From Enterobacteria phage vB_EcoM_IME339, in the sequence record MH051915: DNA of 64,000 nucleotides, one strand, 5' to 3'. A program made the position numbers and the translations under genes. The notes under the pieces are model-generated. The model saw nothing but the letters and a program-made list of their open reading frames with translations. It was not told the origin of the DNA and searched no databases. This document shows positions 4,485 to 58,506 of this stretch, one piece after another (positions within the stretch are counted from its first letter, which is position 1; the number at the start of each line of letters is the position of its first letter).

Positions 4485-4725
4485 TATTCATCATCCTCGT
4501 CTTCGTCATCTTCGTCAGAGTCTTTGTCTTTTTTGTCGTCTTTATCATCACTATCTTCGTCATCATCCTCGTCTTCAGGTTCTTCACCTTCGATTAAGAA
4601 ATTACGAGCGATAGCGATTTTTTCTTCTTTAATTAAATCAATCGTTCTTGCAGCCATGGCTTCAGCAAATAATTTACGAGCGGCTACGAGGTCGTTTGAT
4701 TTAATAGCTTCAATTAAACCTTCCA

Positions 4726-4726
<1 letters not shown>
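4484..4726 (-). CDS. 67: Prohead core protein gp67 (acidic, internal peptide precursor)
   Basis: 80 aa with poly-acidic C-terminus ([14 protein letters not shown]...); position after gene 20. Confidence 0.8.
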
Positions 4727-6351
<1,625 letters not shown>

Positions 6352-51626: not shown

Positions 51627-51628
51627 TA

Positions 51629-51654
51629 GGGAGCCTTCGGGCTCCCTTTTTTAT
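51629..51654 (+). terminator. Rho-independent terminator
   Basis: GGGAGCC-TTCG-GGCTCCC hairpin followed by TTTTTTATTT. Confidence 0.8.
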
Positions 51655-51659
51655 TTCAA

Positions 51660-51712
51660 AATTTTTTCACAAAACGGTTTACAAGCATAAAGCTTTATGG
51701 TACTATACAACT
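51660..51712 (+). promoter_or_regulatory. T4 early promoter
   Basis: GTTTAC -35 and TGGTACTATAC -10; near-identical to the block at 36505. Confidence 0.7.
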
Positions 51713-51740
51713 ATCAACTGATACGGATTTGGAGAATAAA

Positions 51741-52709
51741 ATGAAAACTGTAACTATCAATAAGGGTATCTACTTCGGTAAAGAAATCTCTGGAACTTTT
51801 GAGCTCTTAGGCGAATGGTTCCCAGATAATGCTCCGGTAGATGCACAAGGAGATGGTAAAGTTTTTGTTGAAATTGACGGTAAACGTCGCGGTGTTTGGG
51901 TTTACAAATCAGATATTTCATATGATGGTGTAAAGGTTGAAGAAGTTAAAGAATCGTATGAAGATATGAAAACCCGCATTAATAAAAGATTTAATGTTAT
52001 GGGAATGATGACGAATGGTATTATTAATGGAAATATTCGTTCATTAATTATCTCTGGCGCAGCAGGTATTGGTAAAACGTATTCTTTAGATAAAGCTTTG
52101 AATAAAGCAAATGATATTGGATACATTGAATATAAAAGCATTAATGGTAAAATCTCTGGTATTGGTCTTTATGAGCAGCTTTGGAATAATCGTGAAGAGA
52201 ATTCTGTCCTTTTGATTGATGATGTGGATGTTTTCTCTGATATGGACATTCTTAATCTTCTAAAAGCCGCTCTGGACACCGGAGAGACCCGTAAAGTCTG
52301 CTGGAGCACTGCGTCTTCTTACTTAGAAGAAAAAGGCATTGAGCGTGAGTTTGAATTTAAAGGAACGATTGTTTTTATCACAAACGTTGACATTGACCGC
52401 GAATTAGACCGTGGTACTAAACTTGCTCCACACTTACAAGCATTAGTGTCCCGCTCGGTTTATTTAGATTTGGGTGTTCACACTAATGAAGAAATTATGG
52501 TCAGGGTTGAAGATGTTATTCTTTCAACTGACATGATGCAAAAGCGCGGTCTTTCTGATGAAGAAACTTATAAAGCATTATCATGGATGAAAGTTAATGT
52601 TAATCGTTTACGCAATGTTTCACTGCGTACTGCTCTTTATCTTGCTGACTTTATTATGACCGATAAAAACGGTTGGGAAGAAATCGCTGAGGTTACTCTT
52701 CTGAAATAA
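51741..52709 (+). CDS. AAA+ family ATPase (hypothetical), nrdC.10-like by position
   Basis: Track start 51729 is TTG; moved to ATG 51741; Walker A GAAGIGKT, Walker B LLIDDVD. Confidence 0.7.
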   Translation: MKTVTINKGIYFGKEISGTFELLGEWFPDNAPVDAQGDGKVFVEIDGKRRGVWVYKSDISYDGVKVEEVKESYEDMKTRINKRFNVMGMMTNGIINGNIRSLIISGAAGIGKTYSLDKALNKANDIGYIEYKSINGKISGIGLYEQLWNNREENSVLLIDDVDVFSDMDILNLLKAALDTGETRKVCWSTASSYLEEKGIEREFEFKGTIVFITNVDIDRELDRGTKLAPHLQALVSRSVYLDLGVHTNEEIMVRVEDVILSTDMMQKRGLSDEETYKALSWMKVNVNRLRNVSLRTALYLADFIMTDKNGWEEIAEVTLLK

Positions 52710-53173: not shown

Positions 53174-53701
53174 ATGAACGCTAAAGATATTTTCAACTTG
53201 GTAAATTACAACGATGGTAAATTTAAATCTGAAGCGCAAAGCAAGTTCTTTAACGACATCTCAATCGGAGGTGAAATCACTGTTGATGGAGGACAAATTT
53301 ACAAATCCCGTTGGAATTGGATCGTTATTATTGATGAGATCGGTATTGTAGAAATTTACAAAAATACGAATAAAAATCGTACATTGCACTGGTCTCGTGA
53401 TACTAACGAACAGTACAAAAAGGATAAAGCATCTAAATTATCTCGTGTAACTCAAGAAGATATTGAGTTCATCAAGAAAGATATTTTAATGTATGATAAT
53501 TTAATTGCTGAAGAGCAAGCTGTTATTGATAAATTTGACGAGATTAAAGCTTCTCGTGAAATTCCTGATTTTATGAAAGAATCGGTAAATGAACGATACA
53601 CTCTCATTTCAGAGCGTATTGAAACTTACAAAAAGCAAAGAGCTGAACGCCAAAATACTCTTCGGAAGTTTGAAGAACGGTTAAAGACGGTACTCGCATA
53701 A
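53174..53701 (+). CDS. Hypothetical protein
   Basis: 175 aa; GGAGGAACACAAAATG RBS. Confidence 0.55.
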   Translation: MNAKDIFNLVNYNDGKFKSEAQSKFFNDISIGGEITVDGGQIYKSRWNWIVIIDEIGIVEIYKNTNKNRTLHWSRDTNEQYKKDKASKLSRVTQEDIEFIKKDILMYDNLIAEEQAVIDKFDEIKASREIPDFMKESVNERYTLISERIETYKKQRAERQNTLRKFEERLKTVLA

Positions 53702-54164: not shown

Positions 54165-54229
54165 GGAAAATATGTCAGTAGTAATTAATAATGTCAATGC
54201 AGTAATTAAATCTTTAGTTAATAAAAAAA

Positions 54230-55063
54230 ATGATGAATGAATGGACTGTATTTCGTCGTGGAGAGCCAGATAAATTTTTTCATAGATTTAACCCAACTTT
54301 GGATTTGAATGTTATCGACAGAGATGTTCATGCTGAAATTTTAGATAAGTTTAAAGTTGATATTGGATTTGGATTAGAAAAACATTTACAGCGAACAAAT
54401 GGATCTGGAATGAGTTTATCTAATCGCATTATGAAAGCCCTTAATAAAATTGGAGCGTTGTCTCGTATTAACGCGAGTGAAATTCTTCGTAATTATAATA
54501 AAGGATATGACCTTTATGGTCGACTAATGCCGAAGTTATCATTTGACCAAATGATTGCAGATTTGTGGGAAAATCAAAGACGATTATTAGCATTAGGCGC
54601 TCGATTAGCTAAAGGTCTAGATAAACAAATGATTTTTAAGACCAATAATACAGAAGACCTTAAATGCTTTAAATTTAGTATTCGTGGAGATGATTATTAC
54701 ATCAGAGCTCACTCTACAGATTATGTTAATATGGGTCATCATCTCTGTTTAGCTTTTGAAGTTTTAAAAGAAGCTGGAACATTAGAATATTCATCTGGGG
54801 CAAAATGTCCTATTGGTTCAAGTTGTATTTTAATTTATCGCCCGGATGAATCCAGTTCAACTACATTGCCTACGAAACCTGTACCAGTTCGTAGTAACGA
54901 AAAACATTCTGAACAAATTGATTATTTTAATAAACAGATTGAAGAGCTGAATATTTCTATTCAACAATATGACGATGAAATTTTCAGACTATCTGGATTG
55001 AGTAGTAAAGCTAAATCTGAGCGTGAAAAGTTAATTAAAATCGTTGATTTACTTAAATCTTAA
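54230..55063 (+). CDS. Hypothetical protein, member 1 of a four-gene paralogue family with C-terminal coiled coil
   Basis: 277 aa; shares the internal motif (W/F)xxQ(R/L)xL(L/K)xxAxRL and a C-terminal heptad-rich tail with the next three ORFs. Confidence 0.6.
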   Translation: MMNEWTVFRRGEPDKFFHRFNPTLDLNVIDRDVHAEILDKFKVDIGFGLEKHLQRTNGSGMSLSNRIMKALNKIGALSRINASEILRNYNKGYDLYGRLMPKLSFDQMIADLWENQRRLLALGARLAKGLDKQMIFKTNNTEDLKCFKFSIRGDDYYIRAHSTDYVNMGHHLCLAFEVLKEAGTLEYSSGAKCPIGSSCILIYRPDESSSTTLPTKPVPVRSNEKHSEQIDYFNKQIEELNISIQQYDDEIFRLSGLSSKAKSEREKLIKIVDLLKS

Positions 55064-55071
55064 GGAATACC

Positions 55072-56100
55072 ATGAAAACTCGTTCTCAAATTGAAGATAT
55101 GGTTCGTAATGCCAGCTATACTCGTGATGTTATGACATTTTTGTGTGAAAATAATTTAGACCCTGATAAAGTTAATCATGTTATTCATCACTTTAAGTAT
55201 ACAAATAGCAGTGAATGGATACGTAATTTTAGTAAAGCAGGGTATATTACACAAATGACGGCTCGTGAGCAGCTCACAGATTTCTGTAAAACTATTGATT
55301 ATAAAAATCCTCTATTTGTTCAAGGCGTTGGTCAAAGTAAGGTCGATTTATCATCTGGATTTTTCAATCCAAATCATTATCGTATTGAATGGAGATTTAT
55401 TGCTCTGTTCCGTAGACAATTAAAGCAAATTTTATCAACTGCGAGTCGATTGAAAGGTTCTGATATTAACTTAAAGAACCTGAAATTTGATGGTTATACT
55501 CTTCAGATGGAAGTAAGACCATTAAAAGAAAATAACAGAACTGCACGAATTAGCTTTAAACCTAATACAAAAAATTCTCTTTCAATTTGCGAATGCCTTA
55601 AATCGCAGTTGACAGAAGCATTTAAGTATATGGATGTTGTTGCTGCAGTTCATTCTAAGATTTTACCTCGTTTTGAGCGAAATTGGGAACATACAACAAC
55701 GTATGAACTTGATATGATCGTTTCATTTAAATATGAATTTTTGAGAAAGGACGAAGTTACACAAGAGAAAAAGCAAGAAGTGCAAGATAACTTAAATTTA
55801 AATTTATCCAATTACTCATCAAACGATCCTAAATGTTGGATGTACAGTTCAAGTAGTACAGATGCATGGAAACTTAATAAAGTGAGTTTTCTTCCTACTG
55901 AAAATTCAAATTTTAAACCTGTAGAAAAATGGCACGCCGATGCGATTGAGAAGTCTCTTAAAGCAGTAGATGATGAACTTGTTAAAGCAACTAATGAAAT
56001 GTTAGAAGCTGAAAAGGTGTTAGAACAAGCACAATCAAGAGTTCAAAATCTGACAAAGCAACGTTCTAAACTGAACAATGCACTAAATGCACTGAACTAG
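55072..56100 (+). CDS. Hypothetical protein, paralogue family member 2
   Basis: 342 aa; motif RFIALFRRQLKQILSTASRLKG; C-terminal coiled coil. Confidence 0.6.
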   Translation: MKTRSQIEDMVRNASYTRDVMTFLCENNLDPDKVNHVIHHFKYTNSSEWIRNFSKAGYITQMTAREQLTDFCKTIDYKNPLFVQGVGQSKVDLSSGFFNPNHYRIEWRFIALFRRQLKQILSTASRLKGSDINLKNLKFDGYTLQMEVRPLKENNRTARISFKPNTKNSLSICECLKSQLTEAFKYMDVVAAVHSKILPRFERNWEHTTTYELDMIVSFKYEFLRKDEVTQEKKQEVQDNLNLNLSNYSSNDPKCWMYSSSSTDAWKLNKVSFLPTENSNFKPVEKWHADAIEKSLKAVDDELVKATNEMLEAEKVLEQAQSRVQNLTKQRSKLNNALNALN

Positions 56101-56130
56101 TTTACTTTGCCACAAGGATGTGGTATAATG
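56095..56130 (+). promoter_or_regulatory. T4 early promoter
   Basis: GTTTAC -35 and TGTGGTATAAT extended -10 upstream of paralogue 3. Confidence 0.65.
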
Positions 56131-56157
56131 TTCTTACTTTCTACTGAGGAGATTATT

Positions 56158-57159
56158 ATGACTCGTAACGAATATATCAAATCATTCAATAGCGTTATTG
56201 ATGATAAAGTTAAACCCATGTCTAGTCAGAATGCTGTTCTTTCTATTATCAATCAATGGCTCAGCAGTATTGATGCAAGTATTGTTTCTTCCAGTAAATT
56301 TATTCATGAAGTTCGTGAAATTTCTAGCCGCGTAGATAAAGATGATATTAAGATAACCTTTAAAGGGTCTCGTCTTCTTTCATATTTGGTTAATCGGGAT
56401 ATTCTTGGTAATTTTGGGAAAGAAATTAAACGAACTAAAGGTGTAATAGGATACAATTGGTTCGGTGATGTTAATTCTTATCATCTTAATATTAAAGAAG
56501 ACCCTAAGAATATTTTTACTCGTCGTTGGATTAGTAATTTCAGACTTTTCAAGAAGCAACTTTTAAAATCAGCTTCTAAATTATGTTATGGTGATTATCG
56601 TCAAATTCATCCTTTGGCTTCTGATATGATTATCGTAAAAGAATATGAGCTTGATAAAAATAAAGTAGCTATTTTTGTGAATTATGAATTTTTTACACCA
56701 GAAGCTAACCAAAAGAATATTAATAAATTTTTCTCAATTGCTAGCACTATAACTCATCAATTAGAAACGGCTTTGGATTGTATGGAAACTGTAAAAAGTA
56801 TTCATACATATCCTTTCAAAAATATGGGTGGTTGGGAAGGATATAAAATTGTAATTAGTCTTCGTGAAGTGAAATGTGCGTACTCACCGACTGATAAAGA
56901 AATTTACCAACAAAAATGTGAAGAAATTGTGAATACTCCTAAAGAAGAAACTACCCTTGAGGAACTAATGGAATGTCTTGACGATTCACCTGAACCGGTA
57001 GAAATTCGTCCAGAAGTTATTGCACTAGAAAAAGCTTATAAAGAAGTTCTAGAAATTTCTAATAAAGCGCAGAAAGAATATGAGCAGGCTAAAAGGATTT
57101 GGGAAGAATCTGTTAATCGCCTGGATCGTCTTGAACAAGCTTTACAGTTAATTAAGTAA
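56158..57159 (+). CDS. Hypothetical protein, paralogue family member 3
   Basis: Track start 56107 is TTG inside the promoter; moved to ATG 56158 (MTRNEYIKSF) with GAGGAG RBS; motif RRWISNFRLFKKQLLKSASKL. Confidence 0.6.
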   Translation: MTRNEYIKSFNSVIDDKVKPMSSQNAVLSIINQWLSSIDASIVSSSKFIHEVREISSRVDKDDIKITFKGSRLLSYLVNRDILGNFGKEIKRTKGVIGYNWFGDVNSYHLNIKEDPKNIFTRRWISNFRLFKKQLLKSASKLCYGDYRQIHPLASDMIIVKEYELDKNKVAIFVNYEFFTPEANQKNINKFFSIASTITHQLETALDCMETVKSIHTYPFKNMGGWEGYKIVISLREVKCAYSPTDKEIYQQKCEEIVNTPKEETTLEELMECLDDSPEPVEIRPEVIALEKAYKEVLEISNKAQKEYEQAKRIWEESVNRLDRLEQALQLIK

Positions 57160-57211
57160 TTTAAAGCCAAGGATGGCTCGGAGTATAAATCATTAACCAA
57201 GTGAGAAGAAC

Positions 57212-58141
57212 ATGAAAACTCGTAAACATTATATTGATTATTTTGACAGTCTTATTACTAAACACCGTAATTATCAGATCGGACACAGAGCAGTAATCAA
57301 TAATATTCTTCGTGATTTCCTTCAATATGTTGGCCAGGAAAATCATATCTGTAAAGATACTCAAAACGCTTATTCTCATTCGTTAGGCAATTTGCTTGAA
57401 TGGTTTAAACGTTCTCGTATGTTATCTTCTACTGTAGCTCGCGATAACATTAAAAACTTTATGAAGCCAAGCTTCATTAAATCTGCGACATCTATAACCG
57501 ATTTGGTTGAATTTACTATTGTTAACGATGTTAAAAAGACCCATTTAGCCGATTGGTTATCTACCATTCCTGAAACTAAATTTGCTGATAAATTTGCTTG
57601 TCAGTTCAATGACCAAGTGAATATGCTTTTTAAGCATGCTCGCAAACTATTTACCGCAGGCGATGACCGTACAAATACAGTTCATGTTAAGGATTGGGTT
57701 ATTGCTGATGAAGTAACACACAAGCCAGGTGGTTCATCAGTGGTAATTAATATCCAAGTTCCTTATTATTACTCACGTAATCTTGGCACCATGAACTCTA
57801 AAGAAATTAATAAGCACAACAAAACTATTCGTTCGTTGTCTTATAAACTCCGCATGATGTTAAAAATCATGGACGTAGTAGAAATGTATGACGAAATCGA
57901 AGATAATGGTTCAATGTTATACAGTTCACGTATTCTAATTAAACTGAAGAACCCTAATACATATAAGACAGTTGTAAAAGAGCCTAAAGTAGAAAAAATT
58001 GATAACTTGAGCGAAGAACGTGAATATCTCAATGCTCGTTTGATTGAAGTTGAAGCCCAGATTGCCGAACACACCAAATTGTTAAAAGCTCTTAATGCAA
58101 AAGCAAATGGTTTACGTAATGCTATTGAGGTATTGAAATGA
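57212..58141 (+). CDS. Hypothetical protein, paralogue family member 4
   Basis: 309 aa; N-terminus MKTRKHYIDYF parallels member 2 (MKTRSQIEDM); C-terminal coiled coil. Confidence 0.6.
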   Translation: MKTRKHYIDYFDSLITKHRNYQIGHRAVINNILRDFLQYVGQENHICKDTQNAYSHSLGNLLEWFKRSRMLSSTVARDNIKNFMKPSFIKSATSITDLVEFTIVNDVKKTHLADWLSTIPETKFADKFACQFNDQVNMLFKHARKLFTAGDDRTNTVHVKDWVIADEVTHKPGGSSVVINIQVPYYYSRNLGTMNSKEINKHNKTIRSLSYKLRMMLKIMDVVEMYDEIEDNGSMLYSSRILIKLKNPNTYKTVVKEPKVEKIDNLSEEREYLNARLIEVEAQIAEHTKLLKALNAKANGLRNAIEVLK

Positions 58142-58506
58142 AAAAGCGTCTATTAGAAGATATTGCCGAAGCTTCAGATTTTCCTGAATGGACTCCATGC
58201 GCTGGGTTTGATAAAGGACTGTTAGTTACTGACGATTTAGATTTTAAACCTCCAGCCTGGGATGCTATTATGGCTATGGTTGAACGTCGCGAAAGGGCTT
58301 CTAAAAACGTTCCTAATTGTCCTGAATGCGGTACTGAACAGGTTCAATTGATTAACTGGCGTAAACCGGAACTTGAATATAAATGCCGTCATTGTAAACA
58401 CAAATTTAGCAAGCATGCTCCGGAAATGGTTAAATTACCTGACTCTACTGAGTTCTTTAAAGAACTTGCGAGTGTTCAACCAATGCCTAATAATATTTTG
58501 GATTAA
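58138..58506 (+). CDS. Zinc-ribbon protein (hypothetical)
   Basis: 122 aa; CPECG...CRHCKHKF four-cysteine zinc ribbon. Confidence 0.55.

Follow-up and report, generated by a model that had tools for sequence, protein, structure and literature searches.

Four consecutive genes of Enterobacteria phage vB_EcoM_IME339, the orthologues of T4 nrdC.6, nrdC.5, nrdC.4 and nrdC.3, belong to one superfamily. They are situated in a 64,000-nucleotide stretch of the phage DNA (sequence record MH051915), called the window below, and are referred to as genes A, B, C and D in that order. The common ancestry of B, C and D can be stated with high confidence from the comparison of their sequences, and A joins them on the evidence of predicted structures and a bridging protein. 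The array is best read, with a little more confidence than doubt, as a diversifying family of early anti-defence binding proteins, made up of diverged tandem copies that are confined to T4-like phages. The genes themselves and the role of nrdC.5 were known before. The new elements are the joining of three database families, a predicted domain resembling that of tail terminators, and the standing of nrdC.3, nrdC.4 and nrdC.6 as candidate anti-defence genes.

The window is that of a Tequatrovirus. Over the 4.9 kb around the array, DNA identity is 96-98% with several T4-like phages of Shigella and Escherichia and 91% with T4. The gene order is the same as in T4, with A, B, C and D lying between nrdC.7 and nrdC.2 (Table 1). 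The initial annotation had listed four consecutive open reading frames (ORFs) of 277, 342, 333 and 309 amino acids and had proposed that they correspond to T4 nrdC.3-nrdC.6. The four ORFs are present as described, and protein identity together with gene order shows that the proposed correspondence is correct. The proteins are 93.4% (A), 93.5% (B), 90.1% (C) and 60.9% (D) identical to their T4 counterparts, and the identity of A to the T4 and Lutter versions is 93-97%. The length of C is counted from the ATG at position 56158; the maximal ORF, which begins with TTG, has 350 residues.

The databases hold these proteins in three separate families, namely nrdC.6 (phrog_2257, PF26899), nrdC.5 (phrog_2351, DUF7235), and nrdC.4 together with nrdC.3 (phrog_1435, PF26897). 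In PHROGs the function of all three is given as unknown. A Pfam scan of the four proteins returned DUF7235 for B alone, with an E-value of 3e-120, and nothing meaningful for A, C or D. The PF26899 and PF26897 assignments were taken from the precomputed Pfam annotation of A and C homologues, respectively, in the search database.

The family alignments combined homologues found in the databases with sequences from the syntenic loci in T4, Lutter, a Mosigvirus, two Dhakavirus phages and a Gaprivervirus. C and D are paralogues by blastp (E 5e-7) and by hhalign (probability 98%, E 1.4e-13). The profile of B aligns with that of C and D combined (CD) over 254 columns with a probability of 92% and an E-value of 6.9e-7. 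When the coiled-coil tails are removed, both matches persist (E 5.8e-14 for C-D and 4.5e-6 for B-CD), and the tail-less B-CD alignment keeps the internal motif in register. The B-CD score of 55.1 is to be compared with 14.9 ± 2.4 for column-shuffled targets and about 15 for reversed ones. When all 136 long ORFs of the window were scanned, the hidden Markov models (HMMs) of B and CD were each other's best non-self match, and no more paralogues were found among these ORFs. In an alignment of 27 B, C and D sequences Thr2 and Arg3 are invariant, and R123, F128 and A139 of the internal motif are conserved at 90% or more. The identity between paralogues is only about 20%. Pairwise blastp gives no significant A-B, A-C, A-D, B-C or B-D match; as it detects the C-D relationship alone, it is too insensitive for the question of paralogy.

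Profile comparison by itself does not join A to the other proteins significantly, the hhalign probability being 4-9% and the E-values 0.004-0.01. The score of 26 is about 4-5 standard deviations above the shuffled null (15 ± 2.5), with the correct register. The A-B score was reached by none of 30 shuffles and the A-CD score by one of 30. At low probability, hhalign sets DLWENQRRLLALGARLAKG of A on the internal-motif columns of the other proteins. The AlphaFold models of NrdC.4 (C) and of the full-length form of NrdC.6 (P0122), with predicted local distance difference test (pLDDT) values of 82 and 78, have an identical order of elements: a helical N-domain, a small beta element, a helix hairpin, a beta hairpin, a long helix, a second beta hairpin, a disordered linker and a long terminal helix. 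When searched with Foldseek against BFVD, the C model matches NrdC.6 of JS10 (E 7e-6), and four targets are common to the A and C models (Pectobacterium PM2, Enterobacter IME523, Acinetobacter fHyAci03 and Acj9). In Acj61 the two models match proteins with consecutive accession numbers. The matches of both models extend over the globular part. A 338-residue protein of Enterobacter phage CIP9, encoded at the same syntenic site, is recognized by the A HMM from the motif to the tail (25 bits), by the B HMM (19.6 bits) and, at the motif, by the CD HMM. Similarly, a 315-residue protein of Klebsiella phage EI matches both the B and the CD HMMs. The structure matches, the order of elements and the CIP9 protein give good, if model-dependent, support for including A in the superfamily. 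The 257-residue neighbours in the EI and CIP9 phages were also considered and are not family members.

The family of four paralogues claimed in the initial annotation is thus retained with all its members, A being admitted on structural and bridging-sequence evidence instead of direct alignment. That the similarity exceeds coiled-coil content is borne out by the B-CD match, which scores far above the shuffled null and survives removal of the tail. The N-terminal likeness, claimed for all four proteins, exists in B, C and D, A having a different N-terminus. The internal motif is in register in B, C and D, and A falls on the same columns with a low hhalign probability.

In the models the proteins appear to follow a common design, consisting of an N-terminal helical domain, the hairpin, a four-stranded alpha/beta domain, a disordered linker and a C-terminal heptad helix of about 50 residues. 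The conserved core is the helix hairpin, with a consensus of roughly F..xF..N...iL..aSkL..Gd.R, and a second motif, LS...n.d.L..f.K, is situated upstream of it. In each of the four proteins, the 42-residue window with the best heptad pattern is C-terminal (at 227 in A, 289 in B, 292 in C and 262 in D), with 9-12 of the 12 a and d positions hydrophobic. AlphaFold places a long terminal helix at residues 285-332 of C and 243-295 of the full-length form of A. All four tails finish with a similar L..A(L/I)..LK pattern. The heptad-rich tails noticed earlier are confirmed by these results. Contrary to the earlier view that the middle regions have diverged, the motif region is the most conserved part; it is the N-terminal helices and the segment linking the long helix to the tail that have diverged. 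The isoelectric points (pI) of A, B and D are 8.7-9.4, which makes these three proteins basic. Because the proteins are neutral to basic overall, the idea that they mimic DNA was rejected.

Table 1. Features of the nrdC.6-nrdC.3 array in the window (positions count from the first nucleotide of the window)
Feature	Coordinates	Strand	Remarks and basis
5' end of nrdC.6 cut off from the main ORF: MSVVINNVNAVIKSLVNKK, then three out-of-frame codons and a stop	54173..54241	+	Extra A
Gene A, nrdC.6 orthologue, 277 residues as read here	54230..55063	+	phrog_2257; PF26899
First common motif in A, LSRINASEILRNYNKG	54458..54505	+	hhalign register with LLSYLVNRDILGNFGKE of C
Internal motif in A, DLWENQRRLLALGARLAKGL, helix hairpin	54560..54619	+	hhalign and model; conservation within the A family is highest here
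C-terminal heptad tail of A	54908..55060	+	Heptad scan and model
Gene B, nrdC.5 orthologue, 342 residues	55072..56100	+	phrog_2351; Pfam DUF7235 (PF23882)
Internal motif in B, RFIALFRRQLKQILSTASRL	55393..55452	+	B/C/D alignment
C-terminal heptad tail of B	55936..56097	+	Best window with 12 of 12 a/d positions hydrophobic
T4-early-type promoter-like site (GTTTAC, 17-nt spacer with GTGG, TATAAT)	56100..56129	+	Just upstream of nrdC.4
Gene C, nrdC.4 orthologue, 333 residues	56158..57159	+	phrog_1435; PF26897
Internal motif in C, RRWISNFRLFKKQLLKSASKL	56521..56583	+	Alignment; model helices 119-130 and 132-142
C-terminal helix of C, residues 285-332 in the model	57010..57156	+	Model and heptad scan
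Gene D, nrdC.3 orthologue, 309 residues	57212..58141	+	phrog_1435
Internal motif in D, VNMLFKHARKLFTAGDD	57617..57667	+	Alignment
C-terminal heptad tail of D	57995..58138	+	Heptad scan

With the B/C/D profile as query, HMMER returned only 18 of 1.84 billion representative proteins, all of which are family members or fragments of them; neither outside relatives nor a match to the A family were among them. Structure and tblastn searches confine the relatives to T4-like phages of Enterobacteriaceae, Acinetobacter and Aeromonas. The copies occupy a single syntenic site. Tequatrovirus has four of them, Mosigvirus, Dhakavirus and Gaprivervirus have three each, and Marfavirus and Kanagawavirus have one. 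Some close relatives (H73-H76) lack nrdC.4 or more of the array. Intact full-length orthologues are present in hundreds of genomes, and those of four Tevenvirinae genera are 33-53% identical.

The ratio of non-synonymous to synonymous substitution rates (dN/dS), calculated pairwise over whole genes, is 0.07-0.30 for the array genes against T4 and Lutter (0.14-0.30 against T4), as compared with 0.02-0.06 for the neighbouring nrdC.8-10, nrdC and gene 49. Non-synonymous change in the family is 4-10 times faster than in neighbouring genes. In sliding windows of 40 codons, dN/dS is about 0 for residues 61-160 of B. The change clusters in the N-terminal helices and across residues 181-280, with local values of up to about 0.8-0.9. 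Neither the whole-gene values nor the 40-codon windows clearly exceed 1 anywhere. The earlier suggestion that the family is under selection is borne out only in part. The fast, patchy evolution of these genes is the pattern expected of host-range accessory genes and is no proof of positive selection.

The alleles of nrdC.3 fall into classes of more than 93%, about 75% and about 60% protein identity, and that of the window is 60-61% identical to T4 NrdC.3. Together with nrdC.2, which is zinc-ribbon-like and whose start overlaps the nrdC.3 stop in ATGA, it forms a hyper-divergent block (57212-58506) with protein identities to T4 of 61% and 57% and a synonymous rate (dS) of about 0.8-1.0. The genes flanking the block are 90-100% identical to T4. 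The block looks like a swapped allele cassette.

Several members of the array are disrupted. The A-run at 54223-54230 has eight residues in the window and seven in T4, and because of the extra A the first 19 codons of nrdC.6 are out of frame with the main ORF. The nrdC.6 relatives encode a protein of 295-296 residues with the start MSVVINN. The 277-residue form has a 100% match in at least one other record, that of Shigella phage CT01, and the A8 run may stem from genuine slippage or from an error in sequencing. In the T4 reference AF158101 (about 4700-4771, corresponding to about 54990 of the window) a one-nucleotide deletion in nrdC.6 (GAGCTG-ATATT) puts 16 unrelated residues in the place of the C-terminal coiled-coil tail. 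The nrdC.4 and nrdC.6 genes are split in T2, and nrdC.4 is split in G8. The T4 deletion and the split T2 genes show that these genes have been inactivated or truncated repeatedly and independently in laboratory phages.

Two rearranged proteins were encountered as well. A protein of 299 residues present in three contigs (P0119) has residues 146-274 of NrdC.5 fused to residues 129-309 of NrdC.3, with the loss of all of nrdC.4; the deletion joins two paralogues at positions that do not correspond to each other. In a metagenomic protein of 173 residues (P0235), an almost exact NrdC.5 tail (ending in AIEKSIKAVDDELVKATNEVLEAEKMLEKAQEKVKNLTKQRSKLNNALNALN) follows 120 unrelated N-terminal residues that match nothing in sequenced phages; the protein represents either shuffling of the tail module or an assembly chimera.

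A function has been established for one of these genes in T4. A T4 clone carrying deletions no longer plates on ECOR17 (Srikant et al. 2022, eLife, PMC9391042), and T4 nrdC.5, described there as a nonessential early gene, restores plating of the clone in trans on E. coli with dsr1 (PMC9391042). Dsr1 is a SIR2-domain defence protein. According to a 2026 study, its E. coli homologue EcDsr1 is activated by the phage major capsid protein and has a large bilobed sensor in common with Avs7, whereas other Avs families sense the tail terminator, the tail tube and other core proteins. The sensor domain of EcDsr1 is a plausible binding target. At 93.5% identity, the nrdC.5 of the window probably overcomes Dsr1 as its T4 orthologue does. 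The defence evasion that had been suggested for the whole array has found support for a single member. The annotated promoter of phage Lutter lies at the position matching the early-type site upstream of nrdC.4 (Table 1). Literature searches found nothing on the mechanism or biochemistry of NrdC.5, on phenotypes of nrdC.3, nrdC.4 or nrdC.6, or on the DUF and Pfam accessions.

In the preferred reading, the genes of the array would be early, dispensable accessory genes, the products of which act as stoichiometric binders of host immune proteins and neutralize host immune sensors. The conserved core and the tail would serve as a scaffold, probably self-associating through the tail, while the fast-changing N-terminal helices and the region of the hairpin and linker would confer specificity for the target, each paralogue or allele being tuned to another defence protein or variant. 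Because the nrdC.5 copy is known to disarm Dsr1, nrdC.3, nrdC.4 and nrdC.6 become candidate immune-evasion genes.

Several observations weigh against this proposal. The functional evidence concerns nrdC.5 only, is genetic, and comes from T4 and not from the phage studied here. The membership of A relies on predicted structures with pLDDT values of 78-82 and on weak profile scores. Since dN/dS is nowhere clearly above 1, relaxed constraint could explain the fast change. The repeated frameshifts and deletions could be explained just as well by dispensability or decay as by a usefulness that depends on the host. Finally, the basic character of A, B and D (pI 8.7-9.4) would suit nucleic-acid binding too.

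The strongest competitor, which is itself somewhat unlikely, holds that only nrdC.5 has a counter-defence role and that its paralogues perform other early tasks, acting for example on host or phage nucleic acid or on host takeover factors, with nothing but the scaffold in common. The basic pI of A, B and D would agree with this, an identity of about 20% is low enough for functions to have diverged, and no published phenotype was found for nrdC.3, nrdC.4 or nrdC.6. However, the allele diversity, the presence/absence variation and the frameshifts are those of host-range accessory genes, and every copy is at one variable site adjoining the proven anti-defence gene.

A more speculative proposal, which is to be regarded as unlikely, concerns the origin of the family. 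A virion protein similar to a tail terminator may have been turned into an early decoy. Each paralogue would occupy the large, shape-recognizing sensor of another host pattern-recognition protein (of the Dsr1, Avs7 or other Avs types, which sense capsid, tail tube or tail terminator) before the late structural proteins appear, and so block its activation. Oligomerization through the tail would add avidity, and the array would be a set of structural-protein mimics diversifying with the host sensors.

It is rather improbable that the copies besides nrdC.5 are decaying duplicates with little present function. The extra A that cuts the N-terminus off the nrdC.6 of the window, the loss of its tail in T4, the split nrdC.4 and nrdC.6 of T2 and the absence of nrdC.4 from some relatives would all be expected of decay. 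On the other hand, intact orthologues persist in hundreds of genomes and, at 33-53% identity, across four Tevenvirinae genera, dN/dS is well below 1, and the core around the motif is under strong purifying selection.

A service of these proteins in tail or virion assembly, which the tail-terminator-like domain might bring to mind, is highly improbable. The genes lie on the plus strand in an early accessory region, away from the tail module and with an early-type promoter-like site, and nrdC.5 is not needed on laboratory hosts. The proteins have no sequence similarity to the families of tail terminators, which themselves lack the extra N-terminal domain and the coiled coil. The least credible explanation, which the initial annotation had itself named as the outcome that would overturn its reading, is that there is no true homology and that the resemblance reflects coiled-coil or low-complexity composition. 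It could appeal to the insignificant blastp comparisons, but it is already refuted for B, C and D by the tail-less B-CD match and by controls scoring about 15 against 55, while the structural matches over the globular part and the CIP9 sequence that connects the families speak against it further.

Dsr1 and the Avs-type sensors recognize structural proteins that are conserved among phages. With nrdC.5 being the only known anti-Dsr1 gene, its union with its neighbours makes it one of a four-member family having a common scaffold and variable surfaces. This provides three concrete candidate anti-defence genes in the best-studied phage and points to the N-terminal helices and the hairpin-linker region as the parts most likely to set specificity. 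It also raises the idea that an immune inhibitor was made from the fold of a virion protein. Differences in host range among therapeutic T4-like phages could be explained in part by the nrdC.3 allele classes and by the variation in copy number between genera.

Other genes of the region deserve a brief description. The nrdC.8 protein (53174-53701, 175 residues) also has a C-terminal helix that is rich in heptads and resembles the array tails in its final pattern (finishing in RKFEERLKTVLA), and HMM comparison finds no relationship between this protein and the A-D family. The heptad tail may be a module common to several proteins of the region. The nrdC.10 protein (51729-52709) has weak matches to AAA and STAND-like NTPases (AAA_14, AAA_22 and nSTAND3; E 6e-5 to 5e-4), none of which reaches its Pfam cut-off. 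Its gene is preceded by a strong hairpin terminator (51628-51647) and an early-type promoter-like site (51678-51706). Many GenBank records, such as that of phage Lutter, call every nrdC.x gene 'thioredoxin', a label that appears to be inherited from the gene name nrdC. A thioredoxin domain was found in none of the four array proteins.

The closest solved folds to the four-stranded alpha/beta domain of the family are those of the tail terminators, namely lambda gpU (3fz2), T5 p142 (8bcp), the SPP1 gp17-like protein, the protein of a gene transfer agent (GTA; 6tba) and that of Mu (9khy). The predicted domain may be gpU-like at the level of the fold, with Z below 8 throughout. None of the 27 family members matches a tail-terminator Pfam family at E-values up to 1, and sequence and profile searches of the Protein Data Bank (PDB) gave nothing relevant. 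Tail terminators are without the additional N-terminal helical domain and the C-terminal coiled coil, and, unlike them, the family is encoded outside the tail module, in the early accessory region between nrdC.7 and nrdC.2.

In T4, the orthologues of D, C and A (NrdC.3, NrdC.4 and NrdC.6) are named 'conserved hypothetical proteins'; these and DUF7235, which the databases keep apart, are here merged into one superfamily. The nearest system of known function is T4 NrdC.5, of which B is the orthologue by identity, by its position between nrdC.6 and nrdC.4 and by its DUF7235 domain. Its anti-Dsr1 function is known from T4 genetics, and the paper that describes it is silent on its relationship to nrdC.3, nrdC.4 and nrdC.6. 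A functional analogue is DSAD1 of an SPbeta-like phage, which is reported to neutralize DSR2, a SIR2 NADase whose sensor likewise recognizes a virion protein.

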